Source: Clostridia bacterium (lineage in GTDB: Bacteria; Bacillota; Clostridia; UBA1381). From it: DNA of 64,000 nucleotides. Numbering within the stretch: the stretch's first letter is position 1; each line of letters opens with the position of its first letter. Positions 12,209-46,021 of the stretch are shown in pieces. The stretch spans positions 8,912-72,911 of the forward strand of contig JAZRIR010000008.1 of the NCBI GenBank assembly GCA_045645365.1, given 5' to 3'. The notes beneath the pieces are model-generated. The model worked only from the letters and a program-made list of their open reading frames with translations, was not told the DNA's origin and searched no databases. The position numbers were made by a program, and so were the translations under genes.

Positions 12209-12215
12209 GAAAGGA

Positions 12216-29626: not shown

Positions 29627-29701
29627 TTATTTCTTATTGCCCATAAAGAACTTGTTTTTCTCGCACATTTTAGCCTGTAAATTGTTTAACGCTTCACCGA
29701 A
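29627..29701 (-). pseudogene. cotJC: cotJC-type Mn-catalase gene, C-terminal fragment (FGEALNNLQAKMCEKNKFFMGNKK*)
   Basis: The minus-strand translation continues exactly where the 43323-43656 fragment breaks (…VVHFQRFGEA|LNNLQ…). My recollection of B. subtilis CotJC ends …MRFREAVEILKEERDKKKIF. Confidence 0.85.
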
Positions 29702-29720
29702 GCTACTGTTTCAAACAAAC

Positions 29721-29755
29721 ACAGCCAAAGCCTGTTAAATTCAGGATTTGGCTGT
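29721..29755 (-). terminator. terminator of the minus-strand ATPase/Toprim operon
   Basis: acagccaaa / tttggctgt stem, followed on the minus strand by a T-rich tract, 40 nt downstream of the stop at 29795. Confidence 0.65.
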
Positions 29756-29794
29756 ATTGTATCTTTAAAATTTTGTGATTAAAATATAATGACT

Positions 29795-31039
29795 TTATAC
29801 GACACTGATGGGAATTTTTGCTCCCCATTGGTAGCATAATTCTGCTATCTCATTCCAATACTGCTGGAATTCTGGTGATAAGTTGTTTATAATGTCGAGA
29901 ATTTTGACTTCGGTTTCTTCTAATTCATAAATTTCTTTTTCAAGCGTTTCACTTGAATTTTCTAGATTTTTTATTAATTCTTTTTTTTGGTTTATATCAC
30001 TCTGTATTTCATTATTAAGGATTTTTTTATGAAATTTGGTAAAGGTGTTTCTTACCCCCGATAACAATCTTTGTTTTGGATTAGATTGTGTTGATGTACA
30101 AAATTCCTCTAAAACGGCAGCTAAAGTAGTACCACGTAAATACTTTGGAATTGAAGCGGTCAGATTGATTAAATCTTCAACAGTAAAATCTTCGGTTAAC
30201 AAATCATTTAACTGATTTCTTATATATTTTTTAACTTGGACATCATCAATTTTCAATCCACTCTTTATGTCACCATACAAATATGTTTCTTTACTCTGGT
30301 TGAATATATCTACTAGAATTGAATAGTGCTTTTTTTGGCTCGATTCTGTTTCCAAATAGTAATATATATAAGGAGGTATGAGATTCTCTCTTTCTCTAAC
30401 ATTCAGAATATGCATAGTTGTTACGTGCTCTCTAAAATATTTTTCATGAATATTCTCTAGTTCTAGTGCTGTTTTCCCTAAATTTGAACATTCGTTGACT
30501 TTATCGCTATCAGCTATAACCAAGCAAGGACTAGAATTAGATTCTAGATTTTCCAAATAAGTTTCGCTTATGTTTATTCCGCCGCCATTTATGTTTTCAA
30601 AACCTAATTCCCAGCTTAGGTTTTTTTGATTCATTATGAATTTAGTGAGAGAAGCATAAAACTTGCAATCTGATAAATCTTCACAAATTAATTTGGTTTT
30701 TTGGAGATTTGCAGAATCACTAAGAAATTTTATAGGAACATCGTAGATGTTTTTTGTTGTAGACGATAAAAGTATTTTGTCGTTGTTGCTCATAACTCTT
30801 ATATATGTATTAAAATTTTTTTTGATAGCTCCATATTGTGTGATTTTTGAAGCTAATTTTTTGAAGATTCTTTTGTTATATGAATCTAGTTGTTTGATTT
30901 TAGACAATTTTCTAAATAGATTTCTAGAAGCATAAACTATGTGCCTATTATTTATTGCACATTCCGCAATGTTTTGTAATGCTCTAATCGTCAAATCGTT
31001 TATTTCGTCTAGTATATTATCATCTAAAACTATAAGCAT
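29795..31039 (-). CDS. Toprim/DUF4435-like (OLD-type) putative nuclease partner of the upstream ATPase, with a C-terminal coiled coil
   Basis: 414 aa. Motifs in the order of OLD/DUF4435 Toprim domains: LICEDLSDCKFY (Glu motif), CLVIADSDK (DxD), HILNVRERENLIP (the …ENyl motif). It starts 6 nt after the ATPase stop. Confidence 0.5.
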   Translation of the reverse strand: MLIVLDDNILDEINDLTIRALQNIAECAINNRHIVYASRNLFRKLSKIKQLDSYNKRIFKKLASKITQYGAIKKNFNTYIRVMSNNDKILLSSTTKNIYDVPIKFLSDSANLQKTKLICEDLSDCKFYASLTKFIMNQKNLSWELGFENINGGGINISETYLENLESNSSPCLVIADSDKVNECSNLGKTALELENIHEKYFREHVTTMHILNVRERENLIPPYIYYYLETESSQKKHYSILVDIFNQSKETYLYGDIKSGLKIDDVQVKKYIRNQLNDLLTEDFTVEDLINLTASIPKYLRGTTLAAVLEEFCTSTQSNPKQRLLSGVRNTFTKFHKKILNNEIQSDINQKKELIKNLENSSETLEKEIYELEETEVKILDIINNLSPEFQQYWNEIAELCYQWGAKIPISVV

Positions 31040-31045
31040 TAAATA

Positions 31046-32638
31046 TTATGCCTCCTCAAAAAAGTCAATTGGCCATTCTTCCAAATAACCATCTTTATTA
31101 AACGCAACGTGTCTAATACAGCTTTCAAGACCTGTTGGTTGTTCAATCAACAACACATTTATACTATCTGGGCTTATATTCTTACTTTCAATCTGAAATC
31201 CAATTTGATTGATAATAGTTTCACTATGTGTTTCCAAAAAGAATTTTATATTTTTGTTGTGGGAAATGACATTCAATATTACCTTTAATAACTGTACTTG
31301 CATTTTAGGATGTAGATGCAATTCTGGCTGTTCAATAACAATTTGTACTTCATCTGAATTTTTTTTGTGTATATTTTTCCATAGAATTAATATTATTGGG
31401 AGGATTTGGGAATAACCAAATCCTGCATCTGCAATATTCGTTTCTATGTTATCATTAAGTAGTTTTACTGATACATGTTCTTCTATTATCTTTGTAGTAA
31501 TTTCAAAGCCAAAATTGTCATGTAGCCAATTGTTAAATTGAGAGAGTTCTTTTCGGCTCATACTCTGTAATATCATAGGAACGTTTTCGCCTCTAGCATC
31601 TACTTCTTGTATATTTAAACCTTGCCTTCGATAATACCGTTCAGCTGTTGCTCTAACAGGTGCAATATATTTAACGTTTTTGAAATAATTAGATAAATAA
31701 GCGTTGCAAGCATCAATTACATCTGGCATTAAAGTTTTAATGATATAAATAGATATTTGTTCTTTATGTAGTTTTATTTCTTCTAATATATCAGATATTG
31801 TTTTTTTGTTTAATTTTTTATAATTAGTAACGTCAAAAATCAAACTTATACCCTGATGTTTAGCTTTTGATAAGAAAGCTTCGATATTCTTATATTTTAG
31901 CTCAAAATTTAATTCATTTTTTAACAAGTACTCATATGTAGATATTGCATAAAAATGATTTTCGTCGGGCACCTTGCATCTATCGAAAACTTTTATAAGC
32001 AATGATATCAACTCATCTTTTAGTAAAGTTTTTTCAAGAGATTTCTCATAGTTAATCAATGCTCGCATCAGTAAATAAACAAATTCGTTATTATCTGAGT
32101 TTATTTTGGGAATAATATTACCAAATTCATCATCGTTTCCAATTTTAAATTTTTTAGTATATTTGTTATTAATATTTAAAACTGCAAAATTTGTGTTTCT
32201 ATTAAAAGCAATTTCGGTTTCAACGCCAAACACATTAATATATATCTTCTTTATTTCGTCTTTTTCGATATATATTTTTATTTTCATTTTCACACTTGCC
32301 TTTTCATTAGGCTTTATCATAAAAGGAAGAAAACCATATGCTAATTCTTTGTCAAAGTAATTTATGGTTGTACTAAAATCAAATGAAAAGCATATGGTAT
32401 CAGAATCAGGTTGAAATTTTGATTTGCTTTCATTATATCCTCCAAAATCGACATATCTACCATACCATAATATAGGTTCGGATAGCTTGGTTTCCAATGT
32501 TTGTTTGAATAGAGGGAAAACTCTCGCTAAAGTGCTTTTACCGCTACTGTTTTTTCCAACTGCAATTGTTAATGGTTTTAGTTCAATTTCACCAGTGTTT
32601 TTAAAGCATCTTAAGTTTTCAAGTTGTATTTTATCCAT
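31046..32638 (-). CDS. ABC-type (AAA_15/AAA_21-like) ATPase with a DUF3696-like C-terminus
   Basis: 530 aa with Walker A GKNSSGKST, ABC-signature/Walker B IVIEQPELHLHP, and H-loop ETHSE. The long insertion between Walker A and B is typical of OLD/AriA/GajA-class ATPases. Confidence 0.8.
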   Translation of the reverse strand: MDKIQLENLRCFKNTGEIELKPLTIAVGKNSSGKSTLARVFPLFKQTLETKLSEPILWYGRYVDFGGYNESKSKFQPDSDTICFSFDFSTTINYFDKELAYGFLPFMIKPNEKASVKMKIKIYIEKDEIKKIYINVFGVETEIAFNRNTNFAVLNINNKYTKKFKIGNDDEFGNIIPKINSDNNEFVYLLMRALINYEKSLEKTLLKDELISLLIKVFDRCKVPDENHFYAISTYEYLLKNELNFELKYKNIEAFLSKAKHQGISLIFDVTNYKKLNKKTISDILEEIKLHKEQISIYIIKTLMPDVIDACNAYLSNYFKNVKYIAPVRATAERYYRRQGLNIQEVDARGENVPMILQSMSRKELSQFNNWLHDNFGFEITTKIIEEHVSVKLLNDNIETNIADAGFGYSQILPIILILWKNIHKKNSDEVQIVIEQPELHLHPKMQVQLLKVILNVISHNKNIKFFLETHSETIINQIGFQIESKNISPDSINVLLIEQPTGLESCIRHVAFNKDGYLEEWPIDFFEEA

Positions 32639-32824
32639 AAAACAACCTCCTTGATTTTACAGCATTATATCACAAAATTCCTGAATTTTCAATATAATAT
32701 TAGAAAAATATTAATATTGTTTGTATAAATCCAATATTCTAATTATATATTATTTCTTTGAGTATGTATATAACATATTCCCGGCTTAACCGGCACATAG
32801 AAAAATGAAAGTGAGGATTTTTTA

Positions 32825-33937
32825 ATGAAAACAAACGAAAAAATAGTGTGCTCTGTATGTGGGATAGTCATAACAGAGGGAACAACAAAAAGCTTTGATG
32901 GTCAGAAAATGTGTGAGCATTGTTTTGATGAAAGGACAACAACTTGCGATAATTGCGGGGACAGAATATGGGGAGATAATGCAGAGGGCGATTCTAATTA
33001 TACATTATGCTCTCATTGTTACGAGTATAGTTATACAACTTGCGAGGAGTGCGGTAGGCTCATACACAATGAAGATGCTTTGTATGAAGATGGTGAGGAT
33101 TATCCTTATTGCAGAGATTGCTTTGAAAAGCTGAATGACAATTCAATAAAAAATTACAGTTATAAGCCTGAGCCGATTTTTTATGGCTCAGGCAATTTAT
33201 TTTATGGGGTTGAATTGGAAATAGACAAAGGCGGTGAAGATAACTTAAATGCACAAAAATTGATTGATATTGCAAATGAAAATGATGAAAGAATTTACTG
33301 TAAGCACGATGGCTCCATTAATAATGGATTTGAGATAGTGTCTCACCCCATGAGCCTTGAATATCACATCAATAATATGAATTGGCTTGATGTATTTGAA
33401 AAGGCTACTCAAATGGATTACCGCTCCCATAATACCTCTACTTGCGGTCTGCATATTCATTGTTCTCGCTCCGCTTTTGGAAAGGATTATGATGAACAGG
33501 AAAAGACTATCGGCAGAGTTGTATTCTTCGTTGAAAGACATTGGAATGAACTTGTTAAGTTTTCAAGACGCACACCTGAAAAACTTAACCACTGGGCAGC
33601 TAAATATGCGACCATATCCAATACAACAGAAGAAACTTATAAAAAGGCAAAGGATAAGCGTATGGGAAGATACGTAGCTGTTAATCTTGAAAATTATAAC
33701 ACAATAGAGTTTCGCTTGTTCAGAGGTACTCTCCGCTATAAAACATTTATTGCAACCTTACAGCTAGTTGATGAAATCTGCTACCAAGCAATTAATCTGT
33801 CGGATAAGGAAATGGAAGAATTGTCTTGGTCTGACTTTGTATCAAATATACTACCGAAAAAGTTTGAGCTTATAGAATACTTGAAATCAAAAAGGCTCTA
33901 TGTAAATGATGCCGTAATAGAAAGCGAGGAAATGTAA
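32825..33937 (+). CDS. amidoligase (glutamine-synthetase-like COOH-NH2 ligase, Amidoligase_2 family) with N-terminal multi-CxxC zinc ribbons
   Basis: 370 aa. The N-terminus has six CxxC pairs (CSVC…CEHC…CDNC…CSHC…CEEC…CRDC). The core has YGVELEI, HDGSINNGFEIVSHP, CGLHIHCS and IEFRLFRGT, as I recall for the amidoligase family described by Iyer et al. 2009. Confidence 0.75.
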   Translation: MKTNEKIVCSVCGIVITEGTTKSFDGQKMCEHCFDERTTTCDNCGDRIWGDNAEGDSNYTLCSHCYEYSYTTCEECGRLIHNEDALYEDGEDYPYCRDCFEKLNDNSIKNYSYKPEPIFYGSGNLFYGVELEIDKGGEDNLNAQKLIDIANENDERIYCKHDGSINNGFEIVSHPMSLEYHINNMNWLDVFEKATQMDYRSHNTSTCGLHIHCSRSAFGKDYDEQEKTIGRVVFFVERHWNELVKFSRRTPEKLNHWAAKYATISNTTEETYKKAKDKRMGRYVAVNLENYNTIEFRLFRGTLRYKTFIATLQLVDEICYQAINLSDKEMEELSWSDFVSNILPKKFELIEYLKSKRLYVNDAVIESEEM

Positions 33938-34846
33938 ATGTGTTGCTTATTTGGATTTTATAATTATAGCGGTCAGCCTATTAAGAATTTAAGTCATTTA
34001 ACAAATGCTCTCGCAGAGGAAGCAACGGTGAGAGGTACAGATGCAACGGGAATTGCCTATAACCATAAAGGTAAGCTTACTATACATAAAGAACCGAAAG
34101 CTGCTTTTCAGATTAATTTTAAGCATCCTGATGATATTGTTTCCGTTACAGGTCATACAAGGCATTCTACGCAAGGAAATAAAAACAAGAATTATAACAA
34201 TCACCCTTTTTCAGGACACTGCAAAAATATTAATTTTGCACTTGCACACAACGGTGTTTTAACCAACGATTCTAAACTGCGAAAGGAACTGCGATTACCT
34301 AATACAAAAATAGAAACCGACAGTTTTATTGCAGTTCAGCTTATCGAAAAGAATAAGATACTTAATAGCGAGAGTATAAAATTTATGTCGGAAAAGATAC
34401 GTGGAAGCTTCGCATTTTCGATTCTTGATAGCAACAACACTTTATGGCTTGTTCGTGGCGATAGTCCGCTATCACTTATACATATTCCGAGATACAAATT
34501 ATATGTATATGCTTCAACAGAAGAAATTCTTTATAAAGCATTAGTTGGGACAAAGCTTTTTGCAGAAATAAAGAAAGGAGCTTTTGAGGAACTTGAAATA
34601 AACTCCGGTGATATTTTTAATATATTAACTGACGGAACTATCGTTAATGATAAGTTTGATTATACAGACTATAGCTATTTCGGTCATTGCCAATGGTGGA
34701 ACTATAACACATCAAAAAAGAGTTACATTGATGATTTGAAATCTGTTGCTGCTTATCAGGGATATTCACCTGATGATGTGGATGCGTTACTACAAAATGG
34801 TTTTACTCCCGAAGAGGTTGAGGAATATCTGTATTGTATAGAATAA
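33938..34846 (+). CDS. class II (Ntn) glutamine amidotransferase-like protein
   Basis: 302 aa. It begins MCCLFGF… (Cys2 is the Ntn nucleophile), then has GTDATGIA, GHTRHSTQG and LAHNGVL motifs. The ATG abuts the amidoligase stop, which suggests translational coupling. Confidence 0.75.
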   Translation: MCCLFGFYNYSGQPIKNLSHLTNALAEEATVRGTDATGIAYNHKGKLTIHKEPKAAFQINFKHPDDIVSVTGHTRHSTQGNKNKNYNNHPFSGHCKNINFALAHNGVLTNDSKLRKELRLPNTKIETDSFIAVQLIEKNKILNSESIKFMSEKIRGSFAFSILDSNNTLWLVRGDSPLSLIHIPRYKLYVYASTEEILYKALVGTKLFAEIKKGAFEELEINSGDIFNILTDGTIVNDKFDYTDYSYFGHCQWWNYNTSKKSYIDDLKSVAAYQGYSPDDVDALLQNGFTPEEVEEYLYCIE

Positions 34847-34931
34847 TCGGAATTTTATAAGGAAGAATACAATGCATTATGCGTTTTACAATACATAGAA
34901 AAATGTATATAATTGTTTAAAAACGCAGGGG

Positions 34932-35192
34932 GTGGTTGCAATTGGTGTAGATGAGATTAATGCTTTAAATGAAGTATATAAAGAGATGGTTGACCTAATA
35001 GGCTATGACAATACTATGATACTTTATACATACTACAAAGGTCAGCAAATTACTTTCCCGATAAAGCTTTTTAAATCTGAATGTGTATGTGAAATGATTA
35101 AAAAGCAATATGATGGAACAAACGCAAAAAAATTAGCAAGAACTTATGGTTATTCAGAACGTTGGATAAAGGAATTGTTAAGAAATAAATAA
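34932..35192 (+). CDS. Mor-like small HTH transcription activator (tentative)
   Basis: 86 aa. …GQQITFPIKLF…YDGTNAKKLARTYGYSERWIKELL resembles the phage Mu Mor family. The start codon is uncertain. Confidence 0.45.
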   Translation: MVAIGVDEINALNEVYKEMVDLIGYDNTMILYTYYKGQQITFPIKLFKSECVCEMIKKQYDGTNAKKLARTYGYSERWIKELLRNK

Positions 35193-35234
35193 AATCGAAT
35201 ATTTCTGACAAAACAGTTAAAGGAGAAATTATCA

Positions 35235-35417
35235 ATGATAATTATAATAGCTTATTTAGCATTAGGCTATTGGGCAACAGGAAAGGTTGTTTACGCAAAT
35301 AAAGTTGTATTTTATACCGGATATACGTTTTTTATAAGAAAAGTTATGTGGGCTTTTTTCTTAGGATGGTTACTTATTCCAATAGCTATTTTAAAATTAC
35401 TTTTCGGAAAAAGATAA
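35235..35417 (+). CDS. small two-TM membrane protein
   Basis: 60 aa with two hydrophobic helices and a GGAG RBS upstream. Confidence 0.4.
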   Translation: MIIIIAYLALGYWATGKVVYANKVVFYTGYTFFIRKVMWAFFLGWLLIPIAILKLLFGKR

Positions 35418-35461
35418 AATTAACAAAATCAATTAAGAGCAAATAAGAAGGAGATATTAAA

Positions 35462-35848
35462 ATGGGAATTTTTGAAAATTTAAGTGACAGAGCGGTAGAA
35501 AAATTTGCAAAGAAAGAAACAATACGTGTTCCTTATGAACAAATTGTTGAACTTGTAAAGGAGGAATTTATAGCCGATGCAAATGATGAATTTTTACAAA
35601 AAGTTCTTAAGACCTCTAAAGGTGGAAATTTCTTCACAAGTAAGAAACTTGAATCAGCATCAGGGAGATATCTTTTGCATGTAGGAAATTTGCAAAGAGG
35701 AATAATTTTCGGAAAACGTAAATGTGTATGGATACAAGACAATGAAACGAATAAATTTTATCAGCTTGATAAAGACAGGTATTGGAAAAAGTTTTATAAA
35801 TCTACCGATGCAGCTATTAAGATGGAAAAAATCAATCGAAGCAGATAA
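35462..35848 (+). CDS. hypothetical protein
   Basis: 128 aa with a strong RBS (AGGAGA). I recognised no motif. Confidence 0.5.
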   Translation: MGIFENLSDRAVEKFAKKETIRVPYEQIVELVKEEFIADANDEFLQKVLKTSKGGNFFTSKKLESASGRYLLHVGNLQRGIIFGKRKCVWIQDNETNKFYQLDKDRYWKKFYKSTDAAIKMEKINRSR

Positions 35849-35914
35849 TCTAAAGCACTCCTTAAAGGTACACCTTTAGGAACAGTGAAAATTTAATAAA
35901 AACAAGACAAAAAA

Positions 35915-35981
35915 AGCGTGTATAAAGGTTCAGATGCAGTATAGGGATATGTCCCTATATTGACCGAGGTTTATACACGCT
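35915..35981. repeat. nested inverted repeats immediately upstream of the resolvase gene
   Basis: The outer 12-bp perfect inverted repeat is agcgtgtataaa (35915-35926) / tttatacacgct (35970-35981). It encloses an inner inverted repeat, tataggga (35940-35947) / tccctata (35952-35959). Confidence 0.7.
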
Positions 35982-36000
35982 TATATTTTGGGAGGTAGAT

Positions 36001-36594
36001 ATGAATAATAAGATTTTTTATTATGCACGAGTATCAAGCCGAGAACAAAATCTTGACAGACAGATTGAAGCTTTTAAAAAGCTCGGTGCAGATGAACGTG
36101 AAATTATATGTGATAAGGAAAGCGGAAAGGACTTTAACAGAAGCGGTTATCAGGCGCTTAAAAACACAATGCTTCGCAGTGGTGATACGTTGATTGTAAA
36201 ATCTCTTGACCGCCTTTCGAGGAATAAGAGTGATATAAAAACCGAGCTTCAATATTTTAAGGATAATAATATCCGTTTAAAAGTCATTGACCTGCCTACA
36301 ACGATGATTGATTTGCCCGAAGGACAGGAATGGGTGTTTGATATGGTTAATAACATCCTGATTGAAGTGCTTGGAACAATCGCAGAACAGGAACGGCAGA
36401 CTATTCGCAAACGGCAACGAGAAGGTATAGAGGCTGCTAAAGCAAAAGGTAAACATCTCGGCAGACCGAAGACTGTAAAGTCCGACAATTGGGATGAAGT
36501 TGTATCAGATTGGAAACGTGGAAACATAACAGCACGCCAAGCATACACAATGCTTGACGTTTCAAAATCCGTTTTTTATAGACTTGTTAAGTAA
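36001..36594 (+). CDS. small serine recombinase (resolvase/invertase)
   Basis: 197 aa with the catalytic motif YYARVSSREQNLDRQ, SLDRLSRN, and a C-terminal HTH. Confidence 0.9.
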   Translation: MNNKIFYYARVSSREQNLDRQIEAFKKLGADEREIICDKESGKDFNRSGYQALKNTMLRSGDTLIVKSLDRLSRNKSDIKTELQYFKDNNIRLKVIDLPTTMIDLPEGQEWVFDMVNNILIEVLGTIAEQERQTIRKRQREGIEAAKAKGKHLGRPKTVKSDNWDEVVSDWKRGNITARQAYTMLDVSKSVFYRLVK

Positions 36595-36784
36595 ACAGAA
36601 ATAATCATTAGAAGCTGATGTCATGTTTTGTTTTGTTGACTTATGCTAAAATTGAGAGTATAATTAGTATGGTATAAATGTGTAATTTCATTTCACGGTA
36701 ATCTCTTTTAGTCATTCGCACATCATGAAAGAGAAAAACTAATTGCTATTTGTGCTGGTACGGAGCAGCAGAATGGAGATTAAT

Positions 36785-38032
36785 ATGAAAATAGAAATTA
36801 AAAAAGAATTTAATATCCTTTCAAGAAAACAATTTGACGTAATGGTTGAAAAATTAAAAAGAGAAAAATCAAATGAAATAAGTAATACAAGCATAGAATA
36901 TATAAAAGAGCAAATCAAAAAGATATTTAAAGAATGTTGTATAGCTGCAAAGATTGCTTTCTCAGTTGAACAAACTAATGAAATAATAAATTTGATATTA
37001 TTAACTTACATTGATTTAATTATTGAAAATGATAAAAGTACATTTGAATCTATATTTCAATATGTTAGAAATATAGAACCCGAGAATTCCGATATTATAA
37101 ATGAAATAACAAAAAAATTAAAATACGGAATAAACAATTACAAATTGAATGTTTCAATATATAATCAATATGCAAAAACGAATGATTTTTTGTATTCACG
37201 TGGTAAATATCATACAAATCACGAAAGAGATAAAAAAGTTTTTAGCACAAGAATCCCTCATAATTTAATTAAGTTGGAATTTGCTGAAGCATTTTCTAAT
37301 GGATGTCTACTAATATATGAATTGATGTACAAAAACAAAAATCCATTTACAACAACACATAGAGATAAAAATAATATATTATTTTCTGCATATCAAAATT
37401 TGTGTTGCTATATGGATGAAATATGTAAATGCAGCACATCAAAAGAAATAGTATTAAAAAATGTATTTTTTTGGAAGTTTGAAAAAACATATAGGTTTGT
37501 TTTCATTTCAATTTTAGCAAAGTATATTTTTGAACAGAATATAGAAGCGTCAGCATTAAAACTACCAAAGTTATTATATAATTACTATTTTCCGTATCAT
37601 TTTAAGGATGATAACACCGGTGTTTTTTGCGGTTCGCCTATTATTTCATATTATGAGGAAATAATTAAATACTCATTTGAAACAAAAAATACTGTTTTAG
37701 ATGTTGAAGCTCTTGAAATACAAAGAGAAATGATGGCATATACATTATCAATACTTTGTGTGTTATTTCCTCCAACCGAAACAAGGTCACATAAATTATT
37801 TTATAATAGAGAAACAAATAAATTTGATTTTGATGCTGTTGGGGATTTCTTGATTAAAGACTGCAAAATACCAGTATTATTATCAGAATATAAGGAGCTT
37901 ATTGAGGAAAATATTAATAATAATTTATATGTAAAGACTATCCAAGAGCTTTTACTAAATAATGATGTTGTTGAACAAAAAATATTGAGTAATTCAGCAA
38001 AGAAAATGAAAAGCTTTAAAAAAACAAATTAA
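36785..38032 (+). CDS. hypothetical protein (415 aa), no recognisable domain
   Basis: Long ORF with a GGAGA RBS before the ATG at 36785 and its own terminator. Asn/Lys/Ile-rich. Confidence 0.6.
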   Translation: MKIEIKKEFNILSRKQFDVMVEKLKREKSNEISNTSIEYIKEQIKKIFKECCIAAKIAFSVEQTNEIINLILLTYIDLIIENDKSTFESIFQYVRNIEPENSDIINEITKKLKYGINNYKLNVSIYNQYAKTNDFLYSRGKYHTNHERDKKVFSTRIPHNLIKLEFAEAFSNGCLLIYELMYKNKNPFTTTHRDKNNILFSAYQNLCCYMDEICKCSTSKEIVLKNVFFWKFEKTYRFVFISILAKYIFEQNIEASALKLPKLLYNYYFPYHFKDDNTGVFCGSPIISYYEEIIKYSFETKNTVLDVEALEIQREMMAYTLSILCVLFPPTETRSHKLFYNRETNKFDFDAVGDFLIKDCKIPVLLSEYKELIEENINNNLYVKTIQELLLNNDVVEQKILSNSAKKMKSFKKTN

Positions 38033-38043
38033 TAAACAATTAA

Positions 38044-38085
38044 ATCAGACTGTCTCGCATAAAGCCGGGACAGTCTGATTTTTAT
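38044..38085 (+). terminator. rho-independent terminator
   Basis: atcagactgtc / gacagtctgat stem followed by T5. Confidence 0.8.
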
Positions 38086-38319
38086 ATATTTCAAAGAATA
38101 AAAATACCCAAAAACCATTGAAAACACAAGGTTTTTTCAATGCACATTTTACCTCCTGTTTTTTTATCCATTATATGCTATAGTTGATACATAATACTTT
38201 TAGGAGGTTTTCTATATGAAATAAAAAAAATAAAACTTGTACGGAAATTTTGTATTGGATTATATTAGGACAATACACAGAAAAAATGTATAACACAGTA
38301 TTTTTAGGAGGGAATCTAT

Positions 38320-40134
38320 ATGTCATATGATTCATATTATCATTCGATTTGGAACCACGACGCAGAAACGGAAAGTACACTGCAAGTTTCAATTGGTGTA
38401 AAGCCTAGGCTTAATACACAATCTATTGATACAGAAGAAAATGTTAAATTATTTGAAATTGACGAAAAGATAAGATATATATCGGAATACTTTGCATCTA
38501 ATCACCTAATTCCACCAGGACATGTTGATTTGTTGCAATGTGGTACCGGTAAAGGTAAGACTTATAGAACCACAAAAGGATTTTTGAATGAAGCACGGAG
38601 GTGTAATTACAATATAATGCTAATTCTGCCAAGGAATATGATAGTACAACAAGTTTTGTCAGAGATGTTGTCTAAAGAAGTTAGTTTTAGTTTTGATAAT
38701 GGTGTGTATCATATAGATAATCTGACTATATGCACTTATCAAAAACTCTATAATGAACTTAAAAAGAAAAAACACATAGACAATACAATTTTTGGCAGAG
38801 AATATCGTGCGGTCATATTTGACGAATCGCATGTAATATTAGAAGACTCGTTATTTTCTGAAGCAGCAAATTTTATACTTGATGAAATGTTTGACTTTTT
38901 TAGAACTAAAGTTTCGTATTATTTCTTATCGGCAACAATGAAGTATGTTGAAAGAATAATTTATGAAACAGCTTGCGAAAAGCTAAAAAAAGTTAGTCAA
39001 ACTTATATGGGTGTTACAACAAAGAACCCGCCATTTTTTAGAAAATTTGTATTTCCTAACACCTATGAGAAATATAATGTCACTTATTTAGATACTGAAA
39101 ATGAAATAGTAAAATTGTATAATGAATTACCTGACAGTCGAAAACTATTAATTTTTGTATCATCAAAACAAATGGGAGAAAGATTATCATCATTAATGCC
39201 TGATTCAGTTTTCTTGTTTGCGGAAAATGATGATGAAAAGCTGTCAGATGAAGCACAGCTACAGTATTCAAAGATTAAGGAGTTATCATCATTTGATTGT
39301 AAAGCTTTAATTACCACTAAATTGCTTGATGCCGGAGTTAATTTCAAAATGAAAGACTTACGGGATATAGTAATTAATATTGAAGGCGGTGAAGATGAAT
39401 TCATTCAAATTGTCGGCAGGAGGAGGGCAATAGATGATGCTATGATAAACCTACATATTATGAAAATGGATTCTGATTACTTCAGGAAGAGAAGGTTTAA
39501 CTGTATTCAAAAATTAAATGCTATAAGTGATATTAAGAGATGTAATAAATGCATGAAGCAAAATAGAATTTATGCTGAAAGATTTAATATAGAAATAAAA
39601 CTATCTGGGTGTAAAACCTGCTATAAAAATGCGAAGAAAAAGTATTATTTAGAACCCAAAAATTATATGTTAATACAAGGCTTATTTACTGTTGATGGAC
39701 AAAATGTTGTAATCAATAAAATGGCTGAAGCAAAACTTAAACTAATGGTTGATTTTTATGATAGCATTCTTGATGATTTCAATACCGTTGGCGAACAAGC
39801 ATATATTATTAGACAATTGTCATGGCTTGGACTTGAAAATACATACAGCGAGTCGAATTATTTTTCAAAGGAGAGTATTCCTGTACAACTTATGGACTTA
39901 TCAAATATGCTTGAAGAATACCAGGAAAAAGAAATGAATGATGAGCTGCAGGCAGATTTTAGGCAGGAATTTCAAGAAATTGCAATTAAACTAAAGCTAT
40001 ACTCAAAAAGGAGTGAGAATAACATAGGACTAAACAAGATTAATCAAATTATAGAAGAAGCAAAATTATCATATAAAGTTGAATCACAAAGTACAAACAA
40101 CGGGACTGCTTGGAAGGTAATAAAGAAACTTTGA
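38320..40134 (+). CDS. SF2 (DExH-type) helicase-family protein
   Basis: 604 aa with motif I LLQCGTGKGKTY, motif II VIFDESH, motif III-like LSATM, TTKLLDAGVNF, and motif VI QIVGRRRA. A CxxC…CxxC cluster follows the core. Confidence 0.75.
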   Translation: MSYDSYYHSIWNHDAETESTLQVSIGVKPRLNTQSIDTEENVKLFEIDEKIRYISEYFASNHLIPPGHVDLLQCGTGKGKTYRTTKGFLNEARRCNYNIMLILPRNMIVQQVLSEMLSKEVSFSFDNGVYHIDNLTICTYQKLYNELKKKKHIDNTIFGREYRAVIFDESHVILEDSLFSEAANFILDEMFDFFRTKVSYYFLSATMKYVERIIYETACEKLKKVSQTYMGVTTKNPPFFRKFVFPNTYEKYNVTYLDTENEIVKLYNELPDSRKLLIFVSSKQMGERLSSLMPDSVFLFAENDDEKLSDEAQLQYSKIKELSSFDCKALITTKLLDAGVNFKMKDLRDIVINIEGGEDEFIQIVGRRRAIDDAMINLHIMKMDSDYFRKRRFNCIQKLNAISDIKRCNKCMKQNRIYAERFNIEIKLSGCKTCYKNAKKKYYLEPKNYMLIQGLFTVDGQNVVINKMAEAKLKLMVDFYDSILDDFNTVGEQAYIIRQLSWLGLENTYSESNYFSKESIPVQLMDLSNMLEEYQEKEMNDELQADFRQEFQEIAIKLKLYSKRSENNIGLNKINQIIEEAKLSYKVESQSTNNGTAWKVIKKL

Positions 40135-40154
40135 TAAAAAAGGAAGTGATTCCA

Positions 40155-40811
40155 ATGAAAAAAAGCATATTAAAATTTGATAGGGTTTCGGGAAACACCT
40201 ATCACACTATTATCAAAAATAATCACGGACGAAAGATATATTTAAGAGTTAATCGTTTTGATGAAACAATTACAATTTGCGATTGTTTCTATATTGACAG
40301 ACCAATGAGGAATGGCAACAGAGCCATTCCTCAAAAGTGGACAACCATTAAATGTAATTTTAATAGTCTAATTGATGTGTTGACAGGTGAGTTGGATAAG
40401 CATTTTTACGGAGTTGAGTTTTCTGAAAAGGAAACCAATACATCAGCAGAAGAATATATAACGCACTGTTTGAAGAGTAGTAAAAAATTTAGATTTCTGA
40501 TACTAGTTGACTGTGATGGTGTTTTGAAAACAAGGTTAAAAAACAGGGTGCACCGAACTATCTATCTTGAAATTAAACAAAACGTGGATAAAGGTCTGAT
40601 AAAGAATTGTCACTATTGCGATAGGAGCTATAAGCAAAACAATCGGGCTGTAACGCCTTTCGACTTAAAAACCATATACTTTGACTACAGCACGAAAAAG
40701 GTGCTTGAAATTATAAATAACGAGCTTAATTGCGATTTCACAGATGTTGTTGTTACAAGTGATACATTTAACTTCGTGGAAAGTAATATCCCTATATGCG
40801 GTTCGATATAA
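40155..40811 (+). CDS. hypothetical protein made of two tandem copies of an uncharacterised domain of about 85-90 aa
   Basis: Self-alignment by eye: GRKIYLRVNRFDETITICDCFYIDRPMRNGNRAIPQKWTTIKCNFNSLIDVLTGELDKHF matches HRTIYLEIKQNVDKGLIKNCHYCDRSYKQNNRAVTPFDLKTIYFDYSTKKVLEIINNELNCDF. RBS AGGAAG precedes the ATG at 40155. Confidence 0.6.
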   Translation: MKKSILKFDRVSGNTYHTIIKNNHGRKIYLRVNRFDETITICDCFYIDRPMRNGNRAIPQKWTTIKCNFNSLIDVLTGELDKHFYGVEFSEKETNTSAEEYITHCLKSSKKFRFLILVDCDGVLKTRLKNRVHRTIYLEIKQNVDKGLIKNCHYCDRSYKQNNRAVTPFDLKTIYFDYSTKKVLEIINNELNCDFTDVVVTSDTFNFVESNIPICGSI

Positions 40812-40855
40812 GTACAGGCTTATGTTGCATAAAATAAAAAGGAGGTTGATGTGTT

Positions 40856-40987
40856 ATGTCAGAATACACAGATATAAAAAACAATACATACATGATAACT
40901 AATACTGTGCTATTAACCGAAGAGGAAAGAGAACAGGCTGAAAATGAAATAGTTGAGGAATTATATAAGATTTTCGCACGAAAGTAA
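40856..40987 (+). CDS. possible 43-aa acidic protein directly upstream of the LSR gene
   Basis: GGAGG RBS 10 nt before the ATG. Product: MSEYTDIKNNTYMITNTVLLTEEEREQAENEIVEELYKIFARK. It is below the ORF-track size cutoff. Confidence 0.35.
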   Translation: MSEYTDIKNNTYMITNTVLLTEEEREQAENEIVEELYKIFARK

Positions 40988-41022
40988 AAAAATAAAAATT
41001 GGAGCAAAGGAGGTGAAATCGT

Positions 41023-42543
41023 ATGTCTATTGCTCTTTATGCAAGAAAGTCCATAGAACGTGAAAACAGTATTTCATGCGAAACGCAGCTTGAATATTGT
41101 AAATCTATGATAAAGCCTGATGAACAGGCGGAAAAAATCGTTACATTTGTTGACAATGGATTTTCGGGCGGTAATGTTGACCGTGACGGATTTCAGAAAA
41201 TGATGCGTCAGGTCGAGCGTGGGAAAATAAGCAAAATTATTGTTTACCGACTTGACAGAATAAGCAGAAGCTTATCAGATTTCGTTAATATTTTGAATAC
41301 ACTAAAAAAGTACAATGTAAAATTTATAAGCTCGCAGGAATTGTTTGATACATCAAGTCCTTATGGTGAAATGATTGTCAAAATACTTATGATTTTTGCA
41401 GAATTTGAAAGGCAAAGTATTATTGAAAGAGTAACGCAGGCTTATGCCCACAGGAGCGAAATGGGCTTTTATATGGGCGGTAGAAGACCGTACGGTTTCA
41501 CCTTGACAGATACAATTATTCACAATATTAAGACAAAAATGTTCTCTCCTATAGTGGAAGAAATTGAACAGCTAAAATATATATTTGAAGCATACTCAGT
41601 TCCGGGAATAACACTTCGAAGACTTATGGATAATCTTATTGATAATGGTATTCTTCCTACTGTCGGAAGTTGGTCAACAGGAAAACTATCTACAATTCTG
41701 AAAAATCCAATTTATGTTAAAGCAGATAATGATGTGTATGAGTATCTCTTAAAACATAATACAAATATTATAAGCGATATTTCAGAATTTGACGGAGTAC
41801 ACGGACTGCAGATTTATGGTAAAACAAAACATTCCGCAGATGATTGGTCAGATATGAAAGCTGTGGTTATGTCCCACGAAGGTATTATAAATTCTGATGT
41901 TTGGATTAACTGTCAGAAAAAGCTTGCAAAAAACAAGCAGATAGGAAATGCTATAAGCAATACAACAAGCTGGCTTGGTGGTAAAATTGTATGTAAAAAC
42001 TGCAGACGGACAATGACGGTTACAAAGGGTGGTAAACGTAAAGACGGCTCTCAAACAAGATATTTTAGTTGTACAGGAAAATCCCATAATCGCATCTGCA
42101 AAGGCACAAGTAAGCCTGTATATGCTGATAGTTTGGAGGATATGGTTTACGAGCTTGTTTCCGAGAAGCTTGAAACATTAAGAAGTTGTCGCAAAAAAAT
42201 ATCAACAGACAATTCTAATCAGATAAATCTTCTCAAAAACCGTATCAGTGAAATAAAAAAGGCACAGGAAAAGCTTGTAAACCTACTGATGAATGACACT
42301 ATTGAAGCAGATATGATTAATCTTCTAAATGAAAAAGCAAAAAAGCTTGCAGAAGAAAAAGCTGATATTCTTTCTAAAATTGATGCTCTTGAAAACGAAG
42401 AAAGTGAAATAATAAGTGCCATCAATTTATCAAAGAAATGGAGAACAGCAAACTATGAGGAGCGAAAGGCTGTATGCAATATATTGATACATAAAATACT
42501 GATAGATGAATCAGGAAATTGCGAAGTCGTATGGAATATATAA
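41023..42543 (+). CDS. large serine recombinase (integrase of element A)
   Basis: 506 aa with the resolvase catalytic domain (IALYARKSIERENSISCETQ, YRLDRISRS), a recombinase domain, a Cys-rich zinc ribbon (CKNC…CTGKSHNRIC) and a C-terminal coiled coil. Confidence 0.92.
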   Translation: MSIALYARKSIERENSISCETQLEYCKSMIKPDEQAEKIVTFVDNGFSGGNVDRDGFQKMMRQVERGKISKIIVYRLDRISRSLSDFVNILNTLKKYNVKFISSQELFDTSSPYGEMIVKILMIFAEFERQSIIERVTQAYAHRSEMGFYMGGRRPYGFTLTDTIIHNIKTKMFSPIVEEIEQLKYIFEAYSVPGITLRRLMDNLIDNGILPTVGSWSTGKLSTILKNPIYVKADNDVYEYLLKHNTNIISDISEFDGVHGLQIYGKTKHSADDWSDMKAVVMSHEGIINSDVWINCQKKLAKNKQIGNAISNTTSWLGGKIVCKNCRRTMTVTKGGKRKDGSQTRYFSCTGKSHNRICKGTSKPVYADSLEDMVYELVSEKLETLRSCRKKISTDNSNQINLLKNRISEIKKAQEKLVNLLMNDTIEADMINLLNEKAKKLAEEKADILSKIDALENEESEIISAINLSKKWRTANYEERKAVCNILIHKILIDESGNCEVVWNI

Positions 42544-42545
42544 CA

Positions 42546-42583
42546 AAAATCTGCTAATCTATTGATTTAAAGCAGATTTTTTG
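42546..42583 (+). terminator. rho-independent terminator after the LSR gene
   Basis: aaatctgct / agcagattt stem followed by a T-run. Confidence 0.75.
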
Positions 42584-42622
42584 TTATAATATAAAAAAAG
42601 AGAGTTGAAAGGAGCGGAATTT

Positions 42623-42925
42623 ATGTCGGATAAGATTTATACAGTAGATGATATTAAAATGGTTTTACACCCTATTTTTAGTGGTTATAGCGTAAAAAAA
42701 GCTATTCTTTTCGGTTCGTATGTAAAAGGAATGGCGAACTCAAGAAGCGATATAGATTTGCTTCTTGATAGCGGTTTAAGAGGTTTGAGTTTTGTTGGTC
42801 TTATTGAGGATATTCGCACAGCACTTGATAAAGAAGTAGATGTTTTTGATGTTTCACACATTGTACCACAATCCCGAATATCGTCAGAAATTTTAAAAGA
42901 CGGGGTAACAATCTATGAAGAATAA
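42623..42925 (+). CDS. minimal nucleotidyltransferase (MNT/MntA-type antitoxin)
   Basis: About 100 aa with the pol-beta-type motif GSYVKGMANSRSDIDLLLD. Confidence 0.85.
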   Translation: MSDKIYTVDDIKMVLHPIFSGYSVKKAILFGSYVKGMANSRSDIDLLLDSGLRGLSFVGLIEDIRTALDKEVDVFDVSHIVPQSRISSEILKDGVTIYEE

Positions 42926-43247
42926 AATTATAATTGAAAAAATACTCAAATATATTCAAAAAGTTTTATCCTATGTTGAAGGAGCAGACTACGATAGCTT
43001 TGTCGAAAATACAATGCTTGTTGAAGCCTGTGTTTTTAATCTCGGACAAATAGGTGAACTTGCAAACAAAATTGACAAAGAGTTTGAGGAACAATATAAT
43101 CAAATTCCGTGGAGAGTATTATACGGATTAAGAAATAAAATAGTTCACGATTATGAGGGTGTTAATTTAACTCTTATATGGGAAATACTCGAAACTGATT
43201 TGTCTGAGCTTAATAGCCAATTAGATGAATTATATAATAAAATTTAG
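42915..43247 (+). CDS. HEPN (DUF86/HepT-type) toxin
   Basis: 110 aa with the Rx4H motif LRNKIVHDY. It overlaps the MNT gene by 11 nt. Confidence 0.85.
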   Translation: MKNKIIIEKILKYIQKVLSYVEGADYDSFVENTMLVEACVFNLGQIGELANKIDKEFEEQYNQIPWRVLYGLRNKIVHDYEGVNLTLIWEILETDLSELNSQLDELYNKI

Positions 43248-43280
43248 GTGCTGGAAATTTAATTTCAGCACCTTTGATAT
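43246..43280 (+). terminator. terminator hairpin at the right end of element A
   Basis: ggtgctggaaatt / aatttcagcacc stem followed by a T-rich tract. Confidence 0.65.
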
Positions 43281-43322
43281 TTATAGAAAATCTGTTTGAA
43301 TTAGTCAGTTTTGCTTCACCAA

Positions 43323-43656
43323 ATCTCTGGAAATGCACAACCTCTCGTTGTCTTAAGAATTTAATGACTTCATTTACATCAGGGTCATCTGAAAGTCTTA
43401 AGATGTTGTCATAGACAGCTCGTGCTTTTTGCTCTGCAGCGAGATTTTCATAGAGATTAGTAAGCGGGTCGCCTGTTACAGCTATCGATGCTGCGTTAAA
43501 AGGAGTTCCCTGTGCGTTTTGTGGGAATACACTTGCGCCGTTGTCTGCGTAATATTCCGCACTCTTCATATTCAGCCATTCTTTTGGTGTTGCACCGTCT
43601 GCTAGTTGCTGAACTAGTGTTCCGACCATTTCAAGATGCCCGAGTTCCTCAGTTCC
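43323..43656 (-). pseudogene. cotJC: cotJC-type Mn-catalase gene, central fragment
   Basis: Minus-strand translation: GTEELGHLEMVGTLVQQL…TGDPLTNLYENLAAEQKARAVYDNILRLSDDPDVNEVIKFLRQREVVHFQRFGEA. This is collinear with my recollection of CotJC (…TDIGTEEFAHLEM…KGDPIADLYEDIAAEEKARATY…SDDPDLNDSLRFLREREIVH…). The listed ORF 43210-43629 is this fragment read through into element A. Confidence 0.9.
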
Positions 43657-43925
43657 TGTGTTCTATACTATTTTGCTCTGTTAAAAATTTTTAAAAATTT
43701 TATTTTCAGCAATAGCACAGAAAAGCCCTATTTTGAAAAATATTTTTGAAAAAAGTTTTATATTGGACATAAATTTAAACAGTGTGTGTTAATTAATAAT
43801 AGAGAATGCTATATATACTAGTTTAAAATATTGATACTACTAAATAATTGATAACAACCTTAAAGCATACGGGGATTATGCCCTTACGGTATTTTTGAAG
43901 GGTGGGTGGTTGGGTTGTACCTTTG

Positions 43926-44717
43926 CTAAATTTCATTTATCTCTAATATATTGTCATAAGGTATAATTGCATCAGGTTTCAAGTAAGCAAATATTTCCCC
44001 ACAAGCACAATCTGATATTACAGACAATGACATATCAATCAGATTTTCAGCAATAGTCTTTCCTTCATTAGGGAAACTATATTCTGCAAAATCACTTATT
44101 TTAGCATAAAATTTTATTCCATATCCTTTACAAGATTTATACCATTTTCGAGATAAATCAGTTTTCAGTAGTTCATCTATATTATACAATATTTCAGGAC
44201 GTAGATGAACACATCCCAAATAATCATTTATATCTTCAATATAAAAGAAACAACTAACTTGATTGTCGTAATAAATTTTTCTTGCAATATGAGTGACTGG
44301 ATTATCTGCTCTATAATTTACATATTCTATATTATATTCGTTTCCGTTTGCTATCATTGATTTTTTCTCTATATTAAAATTAATGCCAAAAGTATTCAAA
44401 AAATTATTTAATGGCGTATTATGAGATAGCGCAAATTGTAAATCTCTTAAACCAAATTTTTTTATTGATTGGCATTGGTCAAAATTAGATGTGTAATGAA
44501 TAGCACATAACAAGACGTTTTTAGTATCTAAATCTTCTAATTGGATATTAAAAGTTCTACATAAATTATTAACATTCACTTTTGTTGCATCGGTACAAAA
44601 GTCAGTTTGTATAATATTGTCATTGATAAACTCAATAATATTTTCTTTTGAAATCCCTGTAAATTGAGATAAAAATTCTAATGCGTTGTCTTTATTTGCT
44701 ATATCAAAGTATATCAT
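43926..44717 (-). CDS. hypothetical protein (263 aa)
   Basis: Long ORF with an AAGGTGA RBS. It is the last gene of the minus-strand cluster. I recognised no motif. Confidence 0.55.
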   Translation of the reverse strand: MIYFDIANKDNALEFLSQFTGISKENIIEFINDNIIQTDFCTDATKVNVNNLCRTFNIQLEDLDTKNVLLCAIHYTSNFDQCQSIKKFGLRDLQFALSHNTPLNNFLNTFGINFNIEKKSMIANGNEYNIEYVNYRADNPVTHIARKIYYDNQVSCFFYIEDINDYLGCVHLRPEILYNIDELLKTDLSRKWYKSCKGYGIKFYAKISDFAEYSFPNEGKTIAENLIDMSLSVISDCACGEIFAYLKPDAIIPYDNILEINEI

Positions 44718-44740
44718 AATGTCACCTTATTAAATAAATC

Positions 44741-44784
44741 TGACACCAAAGACTCGTCTATTATAAGGCGAGTTTTTGGTGTCA
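44741..44784 (-). other. 16-bp stem-loop between the DUF2752 gene and the 263-aa gene
   Basis: tgacaccaaagactcg / cgagtttttggtgtca, with one G-U pair and a 12-nt loop. No clear U-tract follows on the minus strand. Confidence 0.6.
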
Positions 44785-44794
44785 TCAATATCCA

Positions 44795-45136
44795 TTAGCT
44801 TTTATTCTTTCTAATTTTTTTCATAACAATAATTAGCACATCAATACTGATTAAACAAAGAATAAAAAGAACAACAACTATATACTTATTACTTTGAAAG
44901 GCAGAAACAAAGTCAAAATGCAACAAATAATTTATTGCTGTTCTCATTCCACAAAAAATACAAGAATAATCTTCGTTGTCACACAAAAATCTAAACGGAG
45001 CAAAGAATTGTATAAACATTCCATTAGCAAAAAAAACTATATATACGATAATTCTTATTTCCTCAAATAGTGTGATGTTGTAATTATTGCATTTTTTCAC
45101 AATCTTTAACTCCTGAAACAAACTTTGTCCCAGCAA
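44795..45136 (-). CDS. DUF2752-like small membrane protein
   Basis: A TM helix followed by C…CIFCGMRTAINYLLHFDFVSAFQSN, matching the CxxCGxTR…A…N signature as I recall it for DUF2752. The start is uncertain, because the listed start overlaps the upstream gene by 53 nt. Confidence 0.55.
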   Translation of the reverse strand: MLGQSLFQELKIVKKCNNYNITLFEEIRIIVYIVFFANGMFIQFFAPFRFLCDNEDYSCIFCGMRTAINYLLHFDFVSAFQSNKYIVVVLFILCLISIDVLIIVMKKIRKNKS

Positions 45137-45626
45137 TTATTTGTAAAATGCCTGGAACAAATAAAATAATACCTAACCCACAAGTTGCAACAATACCTGC
45201 TGCACAAGTAAAGAAAAGGATGGAAATAGCCACAATTGAACCAATTAAATAGATATAAGATAGTGTTTTCTTAGTTTTAATATTTTTTGTGAAAAATAAA
45301 ACTAATCCTATTATAAAAACAGCAATACCAATTAAAACTGCAATAAACAATCCTTGTGAAGACACATCAGCGCCTACACTAATGCTTAGACCTCCATCAT
45401 TTGTTTCTTCACTTTGTGAAAGGGTATCTACTATGTAGCTGCTTATAGCCAAAAGAAAAGGCACACAAAACGCAATAATATTTAACAAATGAGCAGAAAA
45501 CATTTTTTTCTTGCCGTTGTCGTTTGCAATAGTGGTCTCCTTATGTAACACATAACCGCAATTTATACACGATTGAGCTTGGTCAGATATTTCTTTTCCG
45601 CATTCAGGACAATTAATCAAAGCCAT
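45084..45626 (-). CDS. zinc-ribbon membrane protein
   Basis: 180 aa with an N-terminal zinc ribbon (CPECGKEISDQAQSCINCG) followed by four hydrophobic helices. Confidence 0.65.
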   Translation of the reverse strand: MALINCPECGKEISDQAQSCINCGYVLHKETTIANDNGKKKMFSAHLLNIIAFCVPFLLAISSYIVDTLSQSEETNDGGLSISVGADVSSQGLFIAVLIGIAVFIIGLVLFFTKNIKTKKTLSYIYLIGSIVAISILFFTCAAGIVATCGLGIILFVPGILQIIAGTKFVSGVKDCEKMQ

Positions 45627-45759
45627 AATTTTACACTCCTATCAAAATTATATAATCATTATATCACAAACTAACATAATAGTCAATTATTGTGGGAAAA
45701 TTTAGAATTTTATGTCGAAAGTTTACTATTATATAATTTAAAATATTTATGTCATGGGC

Positions 45760-45788
45760 GTTGACTATAGTATTTAATGGAGGTATAA
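45760..45788 (+). promoter_or_regulatory. near-consensus sigma-A promoter
   Basis: TTGACT (45760-45765), a 17-nt spacer, then TATAAT (45783-45788). Confidence 0.65.
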
Positions 45789-45794
45789 TATATA

Positions 45795-45989: not shown

Positions 45990-46021
45990 TGTAGAAATAT
46001 TTTTATAAGGGGGTAACGGAT

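Follow-up and report, generated by a model that had tools for sequence, protein, structure and literature searches.

A zinc-finger amidoligase and a class-II glutamine amidotransferase-like protein form a conserved two-gene module of mosaic mobile elements

In a 64,000-nucleotide stretch of the genome of a Clostridia bacterium (assembly GCA_045645365.1, contig JAZRIR010000008.1, positions 8,912 to 72,911; the whole stretch is hereafter called the window), an amidoligase gene and a class-II glutamine amidotransferase (GATase) gene lie together as a co-translated enzyme module. As a conserved part of the backbone of mosaic mobile elements, the pair is not cargo, and in the window it opens the rightward operon of a small integrative element. 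The locus is a member of a computationally predicted and experimentally uncharacterised system, the phage and plasmid amidoligase + GAT-II system that Iyer, Abhiman, Burroughs and Aravind are said to have predicted computationally in 2009. Our leading reading, held tentatively, is that the two proteins constitute a heteromeric glutamine-dependent amidotransferase whose zinc fingers would recruit the target and which would act early on behalf of its carrier. The module consists of the following features:

32825–33937, plus strand: amidoligase gene (370 aa), a zinc-finger module followed by a glutamine synthetase (GS)-like carboxylate-amine ligase core, Amidoligase_2
32849–33121, plus strand: three tandem four-cysteine zinc fingers (residues 9–99 of the amidoligase), LIM-like and acidic
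33938–34846, plus strand: stand-alone class-II (N-terminal nucleophile, Ntn) GATase gene (302 aa) with Cys2 as nucleophile, GATase_6/GATase_7

The stop codon of the amidoligase gene (TAA, 33935–33937) abuts the GATase start codon (ATG, 33938) with 0 nt between them, and the GATase Shine-Dalgarno sequence GAGGAA sits within the final codons of the amidoligase. Open reading frame (ORF) coordinates and the sequence itself confirm the original prediction of two ORFs, the second starting at the stop codon of the first. Both are real genes and not chance ORFs, because each has thousands of homologues: 4,554 for the amidoligase and 6,223 for the GATase in a database clustered at 90%, and, for the amidoligase in an exhaustive search, 13,147 representative clusters at 50% identity. 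The closest relatives of the amidoligase come from metagenome-assembled genomes of gut Clostridia.

To assess how stable the pairing is, 22 genome loci, 79 viral contigs, six phage or plasmid records and annotated contigs were surveyed, and 97 loci carried enough sequence downstream of the amidoligase for the question to be asked. In 86 of these 97, over an amidoligase identity range of 28–96%, the gene immediately after the amidoligase encodes an Ntn/GATase-II protein, and the gap between the genes, typically 0–4 nt, is kept among relatives, bearing out the tight coupling claimed at the outset. In 46 of the 97 loci the GATase was recognised with a family profile; in a further 38 the adjacent ORF begins with Met-Cys and carries HNG close to residue 100, and these ORFs were linked to the window GATase by hhalign (97% probability, E = 5e-11). 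The two remaining cases (L027 and L030) carry an annotated GATase, with a Pfam GATase_4 match above the cut-off in the former and below it (E = 0.002) in the latter. Loci with the pair span islands of Clostridia, true phages and one Mycobacterium plasmid. Pairing in 86 of 97 loci across so wide an identity range therefore marks a conserved two-gene unit rather than chance adjacency.

The carriers are diverse, and in the loci examined the family is restricted to mobile elements. Small elements with a tyrosine integrase and a D5_N primase also carry the block HTH_17 (minus strand), DUF960, amidoligase, GATase and small resolvase. Association with either serine or tyrosine integrases shows that the pair is a mosaic backbone not bound to one integrase. 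In a true phage (L085) the pair lies between terminase/portal and sigma-factor/primase/helicase genes; in Methylophilales phage MEP402 and in a freshwater podovirus it is found in the early region at the left end, and in Mycobacterium phage Marvin it corresponds to gp105/gp106. On the Mycobacterium plasmid pTHAF192_a (L030) it stands directly before a 1,574-aa methyltransferase-SNF2/DEAD helicase protein (7963–12687), an architecture reminiscent of the polyvalent anti-restriction proteins encoded in the leading regions of plasmids. Predicted viral structures annotated as "amidoligase", from crAss-like, Cellulophaga, Pseudomonas, Vibrio and giant viruses, match the model of the window protein with E values down to 5e-24. 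In LUZ24 and tf the pair forms part of the early, left-hand unit (PMC3890496, PMC3517423), and in UFV-P2 and LUZ24-like phages it is part of a larger early cluster with COOH-NH2 ligase, ATP-grasp and AIG2/GGCT genes (PMC3890496). The Amidoligase_2 + GAT-II module is one of the large "known unknowns" of mobile elements; its carriers include phages from many phyla as well as crAss-like viruses, plasmids and small integrative elements.

The first protein is predicted, from sequence and model, to be an ATP-dependent carboxylate-amine ligase of GS-like fold with the full metal/ATP motif set. It matches Pfam Amidoligase_2 (PF12224) with 31.6 bits against a cut-off of 22 over residues 152–317, PHROG 16683 with E = 8e-91, and PHROG 2443 ("amidoligase enzyme") with E = 7e-8. 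The motifs GVELE, HDGS, FEIVSHP, GLHIH and IEFRLFRGT are present as originally quoted, and in an alignment of 58 homologues the residues E130, E132, D162, E170, H210, H212, E295 and R297 are invariant. We take E130/E132, H210/H212 and E295/R297 to be the counterparts of GS E129/E131, H269/H271 and E357/R359, i.e., metal/ATP ligands and the E-F-R motif. A sequence search for a solved PDB structure of the core gave no match. A Foldseek search with the AlphaFold2 (AF2) model (mean predicted local distance difference test score, pLDDT, 84.7; predicted template modelling score, pTM, 0.72) placed GmaS (9qur) first, followed by YbdK (1r8g/1tt4) and GS, at probabilities of 0.97–1.0, with template modelling (TM) scores of only 0.3–0.36 and identities of 10–14% to GS-type structures; Dop and PafA appear further down as weak matches (E = 0.048). 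The core shares its fold and the G-x-E-x-E, H-x-H and E-F-R motifs with the GS superfamily (GS, GmaS, YbdK/GCS2, PafA/Dop), which implies ATP-dependent acyl-phosphate chemistry, but it is far smaller and very remote from these enzymes and carries an additional zinc-finger module.

This N-terminal module contains six CxxC pairs (C9/12, C30/33, C41/44, C62/65, C73/76 and C96/99) arranged as three C-x2-C-x17-19-C-x2-C repeats, and all 12 cysteines, predicted from the outset as six such pairs, are invariant in the 58 homologues. A Pfam LIM match was obtained, and Foldseek retrieved the tandem LIM pairs of PINCH1 and LMO2. The first 107 residues have a net charge of -14. Every one of the 58 close homologues likewise has an acidic module (-9 to -23), as do 63 of the 67 divergent viral versions, whose CxxC pairs number 4 to 14. 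Acidity and LIM likeness together favour a protein target over a nucleic acid, so that the fingers probably bind a basic protein, unless they act by nucleic-acid mimicry. Longer amidoligase homologues were inspected for extra domains, and nothing was found beyond more zinc fingers, unknown repeats and BspA-type leucine-rich repeats (LRRs). In two library representatives (P0257 and P0319) the zinc-finger amidoligase is fused to a C-terminal BspA-type LRR_5 domain, and in locus L019 a separate LRR_5 protein (7207–9501) is encoded directly upstream of the pair. The fusion to such a protein-binding module supports a macromolecular, protein target.

The second protein is a predicted class-II glutaminase with an intact catalytic site. 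GATase_6 is matched with 44.8 bits (cut-off 27) and GATase_7 with 37.3 bits (cut-off 25), and partial NCBIfam matches cover the N-domains of GlmS, PurF and AsnB. Family membership had been proposed as checkable against Amidoligase_2 and GATase_2/6/7; Amidoligase_2, GATase_6 and GATase_7 all score above cut-off, and the Foldseek results and the GlmS alignment agree with the Amidoligase + GAT-II-like placement. The protein begins with MCCLFG, and the nucleophile suspected directly after the initiator methionine holds up, as neither M1 nor C2 varies among 50 homologues. In a BLASTP alignment R32-G33, R75, N105-G106 and D128 pair with R26-G27, R73, N98-G99 and D123 of the GlmS N-domain, and each of them is invariant in the same 50 sequences. 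Since the residues holding the alpha-amino and alpha-carboxylate groups are among these invariant positions, we expect the enzyme to act on either free glutamine or a gamma-glutamyl amide and not on a glutamine within a polypeptide. The AF2 model (pLDDT 84.3) matches PurF (1ao0) with E = 5.7e-14 and a TM score of 0.61, as well as the GlmS N-domain (1xff). The glutaminase domain is followed by a helical C-terminal tail of ~45 residues, with no synthase domain fused. The protein therefore has in common with PurF and GlmS the N-terminal cysteine, the Arg/Asn-Gly/Asp glutamine site and the fold, but differs in being a stand-alone protein of 302 aa with a short helical tail, its presumed acceptor being the separate GS-like ligase.

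We know of no characterised amidotransferase that combines a glutaminase with a separate GS-like ligase. Coupling glutamine hydrolysis to carboxylate activation is nevertheless the logic of asparagine synthetase, MurT-GatD and Gat-QueC, and the arrangement proposed here resembles the latter two, in which a glutaminase works with an ATP-dependent carboxylate-activating enzyme. GatD is a class-I GATase and Gat-QueC is also phage-borne; the partner enzymes in these systems are a Mur ligase or a PP-loop enzyme, neither of which is known to be homologous to the GS-like ligase of the window. As an amidotransferase, the pair would operate as follows: the glutaminase would release ammonia from glutamine; the ligase would use ATP to phosphorylate a carboxylate of the target and thereby convert it to an amide; the acidic zinc-finger array would recruit this target, most likely a basic protein; and the module would act early, at establishment or host takeover, for the carrying element or phage. 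The early role is suggested by the left-end early regions of podoviruses, the early unit of LUZ24/tf and the plasmid position beside the methyltransferase-SNF2 protein.

The locus agrees with the system predicted in 2009, known from the phiEco32, LUZ24 and tf clusters, in that an Amidoligase_2 gene with intact catalytic residues adjoins a GAT-II-like gene, likewise intact, on a mobile element, and it fits the phage and plasmid neighbourhood to which it was first assigned. It differs from those clusters as a minimal two-gene version lacking COOH-NH2 ligase, ATP-grasp and AIG2/GGCT genes (none was recognised by family matches among the other ORFs of the element), in the three acidic LIM-like zinc fingers of its ligase, and in its carrier, a small large serine recombinase (LSR) integrative element of Clostridia instead of a lytic podovirus. 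A full-text literature search retrieved annotations and speculation (auxiliary metabolic gene, superinfection exclusion, thymidine hypermodification) with no assay, all tracing back to the 2009 prediction; it yielded no experimentally defined function, as the original prediction had held. As a compact two-gene version in a well-delimited element, the locus offers an entry point to a widespread system. The present results narrow the hypotheses: no tie to the neighbouring defence genes, a predicted requirement for a free glutamyl head group, a probable protein target and a usually early or leading position. The target, if found, could reveal a new covalent modification in conflicts among phages, hosts and mobile elements.

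Several observations weigh against a dedicated amidotransferase complex. About 11 of the 97 amidoligases lack an adjacent GATase, most of them zinc-finger-less proteins on large Clostridioides contigs resembling phage-plasmids. No genuine amidoligase-GATase fusion was present among the top 150 representatives (one candidate, P0276, was rejected as a frameshifted fragment). Divergent phage GATases carry a YafJ/EgtC-like N-x-D-G-x-G motif, which we take to be one seen in gamma-glutamyl amidohydrolases. The partners have also diverged unevenly, with amidoligase identities of 75–87% against GATase identities of 53–60% in many close relatives. In L002, L005, L006, L008-L010, L014, L016 and L110-L115 the amidoligase is 67–87% identical to that of the window and the GATase 53–60%, while loci with a downstream Mor gene have GATases 63–94% identical to it, at least 80% in all but L017. 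This pattern suggests that two GATase types have been exchanged behind one amidoligase type by recombination inside the module; the partners therefore appear swappable, which mildly weakens the case for a tightly co-evolved complex. Complex formation and ammonia channelling are putative, as are the target and the timing of expression.

The alternative that survives best, possible although on balance we consider it unlikely, is gamma-glutamyl or peptide tagging of the type attributed to Iyer et al. Here the ligase would join the gamma-carboxylate of a glutamate or peptide to an amine of a protein or metabolite, and the GAT-II-like protein, at the same level of likelihood, would be a thiol amidase or peptidase that matures, transfers or removes the linkage, as a writer/eraser pair or an amine relay. 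The gamma-glutamylmethylamide pathway provides a precedent for such a relay. The structural ranking of the ligase, with GmaS first, YbdK-type enzymes next and Dop/PafA lower, fits this chemistry, as does the motif of the divergent GATases, and R75 and D128 of the window GATase suit gamma-glutamyl-X equally with free glutamine. The larger phage clusters add GGCT, ATP-grasp and COOH-NH2 ligase genes (PMC3890496), whereas the window element has no GGCT, ATP-grasp or second ligase. Moreover, a two-gene cycle of making and cleaving the bond would be futile unless an unknown acceptor exists, and by both sequence and fold the closest counterparts of the window GATase are the PurF and GlmS domains, which generate ammonia. 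No conserved small neighbour with a Gln/Glu C-terminus, as expected of a Pup-type tag, was noticed near the pair, where no systematic search was made.

A more speculative version, which we regard as distinctly unlikely, assigns the acidic LIM-like array the role of bait: as a bait or nucleic-acid mimic it would capture a basic protein of the host or of a rival element, which the pair would amidate or glutamylate at a key carboxylate or amine and so neutralise covalently. With the same reserve, candidates for the captured protein include nucleoid proteins and defence nucleases. Were this so, the module would represent a new, widespread class of protein-modifying counter-defence or takeover enzyme in phages, satellites and plasmids.

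Roles in cell-wall chemistry, metabolism or DNA hypermodification find little support in this element. An improbable role is the amidation or other decoration of a cytoplasmic precursor of the cell wall, in the style of MurT-GatD or AsnB/LtsA, leading to superinfection exclusion or defence because other phages would adsorb poorly. The chemistry would be identical to that of the amidotransferase model, the idea is repeated for phiEco32 in papers citing Iyer et al., and the pair adjoins a hotspot of defence cargo; yet the module is present in strictly lytic-looking phages whose hosts are unrelated and differ in their envelopes (Mycobacterium, Methylophilales, Clostridia), its variable acidic zinc-finger and LRR modules point to a macromolecular target, and it has no membrane- or wall-binding domain. 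Just as doubtful is an auxiliary metabolic role, in which the pair would make a free metabolite, boost nitrogen assimilation or take part in the hypermodification of DNA bases. Marine and deep-sea phage papers do annotate the pair as auxiliary metabolic genes, and some viral contigs carry amidoligase/amidotransferase genes together with genes for thymidine hypermodification (PMC8989533), but those published claims are annotations rather than assays, the family lies on mobile elements in the loci examined, genes for a hydroxymethylase, kinase, transglycosylase or polymerase are missing from the window element, and an acidic zinc-finger module is ill suited to DNA.

The remaining features of the element are:

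29691–43320, no strand: integrative element of ~13.6 kb, bounded by the core GCTTCACC at 29691–29698 and 43313–43320 within a split cotJC
29795–31039 (partner) and 31046–32638 (AAA_15 ATPase), minus strand: PDC-M55-type candidate defence pair, variable cargo
32740–32824, plus strand: conserved 5' leader/promoter region of the amidoligase operon, with a palindromic stretch and a small hairpin
34932–35192, plus strand: Mor-family transcription activator (Pfam Mor, E = 1e-6)
36001–36594, plus strand: small serine recombinase of resolvase/invertase type (Pfam Resolvase, E = 4e-30)
41023–42543, plus strand: large serine recombinase (506 aa), 95% identical to the recombinase of locus L001
42605–43247: toxin-antitoxin pair MNT/HepT (a Polbeta nucleotidyltransferase and a HEPN RNase), flanked by the recombinase gene and the right end of the element

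The weakest alternative, that the amidoligase-GATase pair works with the divergent ATPase and its partner as effector, modifier or immunity component under one regulatory region, appears largely refuted by gene neighbourhood and is very improbable: it is favoured by adjacency, the common 186-bp intergenic region and the strong ATPase match to PADLOC PDC-M55A (E = 1.2e-49; NsnB/AriA-type; the partner matches PDC-M55B only weakly, E = 2.2e-5), but the ATPase and partner were found in 0 of 114 related loci, other defence-type genes occupy the slot in relatives, upstream conservation stops ~90 nt before the amidoligase ATG, and neither the amidoligase nor the GATase matches a PADLOC model at E <= 0.01. 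The functional tie first proposed between the two pairs is accordingly abandoned.

The upstream slot is variable, holding a Roc-COR NTPase, YobI ATPases, Shedu SduA_C, a metallophosphatase-STAND gene, an HD-CE/HATPase gene or an LRR gene in relatives. The divergent genes in the window are indeed separated by 186 bp (32639–32824), as originally described, but the notion of a meaningful shared promoter did not stand, as an alignment of seven loci revealed conservation limited to the last ~85–95 nt before the amidoligase ATG, with unrelated sequence further left. Given the variable slot and this break in conservation, the ATPase pair is interchangeable hotspot cargo and the amidoligase operon brings its own leader. 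The leader (RNA fold z = -2.1) contains a hairpin, CCGG-CTTAA-CCGG at 32781–32793, and just upstream of it a palindrome, GAGTATGT...ACATATTC. In L007 the sequence CCGTA-AGGC-TACGG stands in place of the hairpin, which may be a compensatory change. Palindrome and hairpin may constitute an operator or a leader structure; an Rfam search of the leader identified no riboswitch or known RNA. A promoter scan gave 22 matches against 17.8 ± 3.6 in shuffled sequences, i.e., no excess, and promoter assignments are correspondingly weak. The upstream defence-gene hotspot was also observed at L001 (4329–6674), L003 (8575–9804), L004 (4993–8925), L007 (6276–9428) and L013 (5982–8594), and this slot could be mined for new defence systems.

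The placement of the pair in an LSR element can now be refined to a 13.6-kb element inserted in cotJC. Its gene order is the ATPase pair (minus strand), amidoligase, GATase, Mor, two small ORFs, the small resolvase, a 429-aa unknown, a DEAD/ResIII helicase, a 233-aa unknown, the 506-aa LSR and the MNT/HepT pair. The Mor gene is conserved after the GATase in the closest relatives (L001, L003, L004, L007, L013, L017 and L031), and the small resolvase, the commonest downstream neighbour after the GATase, follows the pair in 26 loci, including tyrosine-integrase elements. On the minus strand the cotJC frame breaks off at the right junction after "...HFQRFGEA"; at the left junction, immediately to the right of the sigF operon, it resumes as "FGEALNNLQAKMCEKNKFFMGNKK*". 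The 139-aa ORF at 43210–43629 (minus strand) is an Mn-catalase/CotJC fragment (Mn_catalase, E = 2.7e-21). The L001 recombinase matches Pfam Resolvase, Recombinase and Zn_ribbon_recom, and related recombinases (57–94% identity) adjoin cotJC fragments in four other contigs, identifying cotJC as the target of this recombinase clade. A similar LSR is combined with a different backbone in L120; the contigs available for judging whether the pair always accompanies this LSR are short. Skin-like elements that intervene in genes of spore formers are excised by large serine recombinases (PMC5595907, PMC4191935). The window element resembles them in splitting a mother-cell sporulation gene whose frame is restorable across a short core, with the LSR near one end, and differs in that its target is cotJC; its excision is putative. 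The literature search found no account of this family of elements.

The cotJC gene lies in at least three pieces, at 29630–29700, 43210–43660 and ~50300–50450 (all minus strand): the C-terminal piece adjoins sigF, the middle one is found to the right of the first element, and the N-terminal one, "YGGPHGELGASLRYLSQRY...LLTDIG", immediately to the right of a second serine recombinase (560 aa). A single sporulation gene therefore carries tandem insertions of two different LSR elements, and because its N-terminal piece lacks an in-frame Met, it may be interrupted a third time. The second element (~43660–50300) contains a zinc-ribbon membrane protein gene (45084–45626, minus strand), resolvase-like genes (46742–47278 and 47573–48172) and the 560-aa LSR gene (48588–50270), and no amidoligase pair. 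Beside the N-terminal cotJC fragment, a RepA_N/DUF6017 replication-initiator gene (50587–51453) is followed by same-strand ORFs of up to 842 aa as far as ~64000, and the region from 50587 onward may be a third, conjugative or plasmid-like element.

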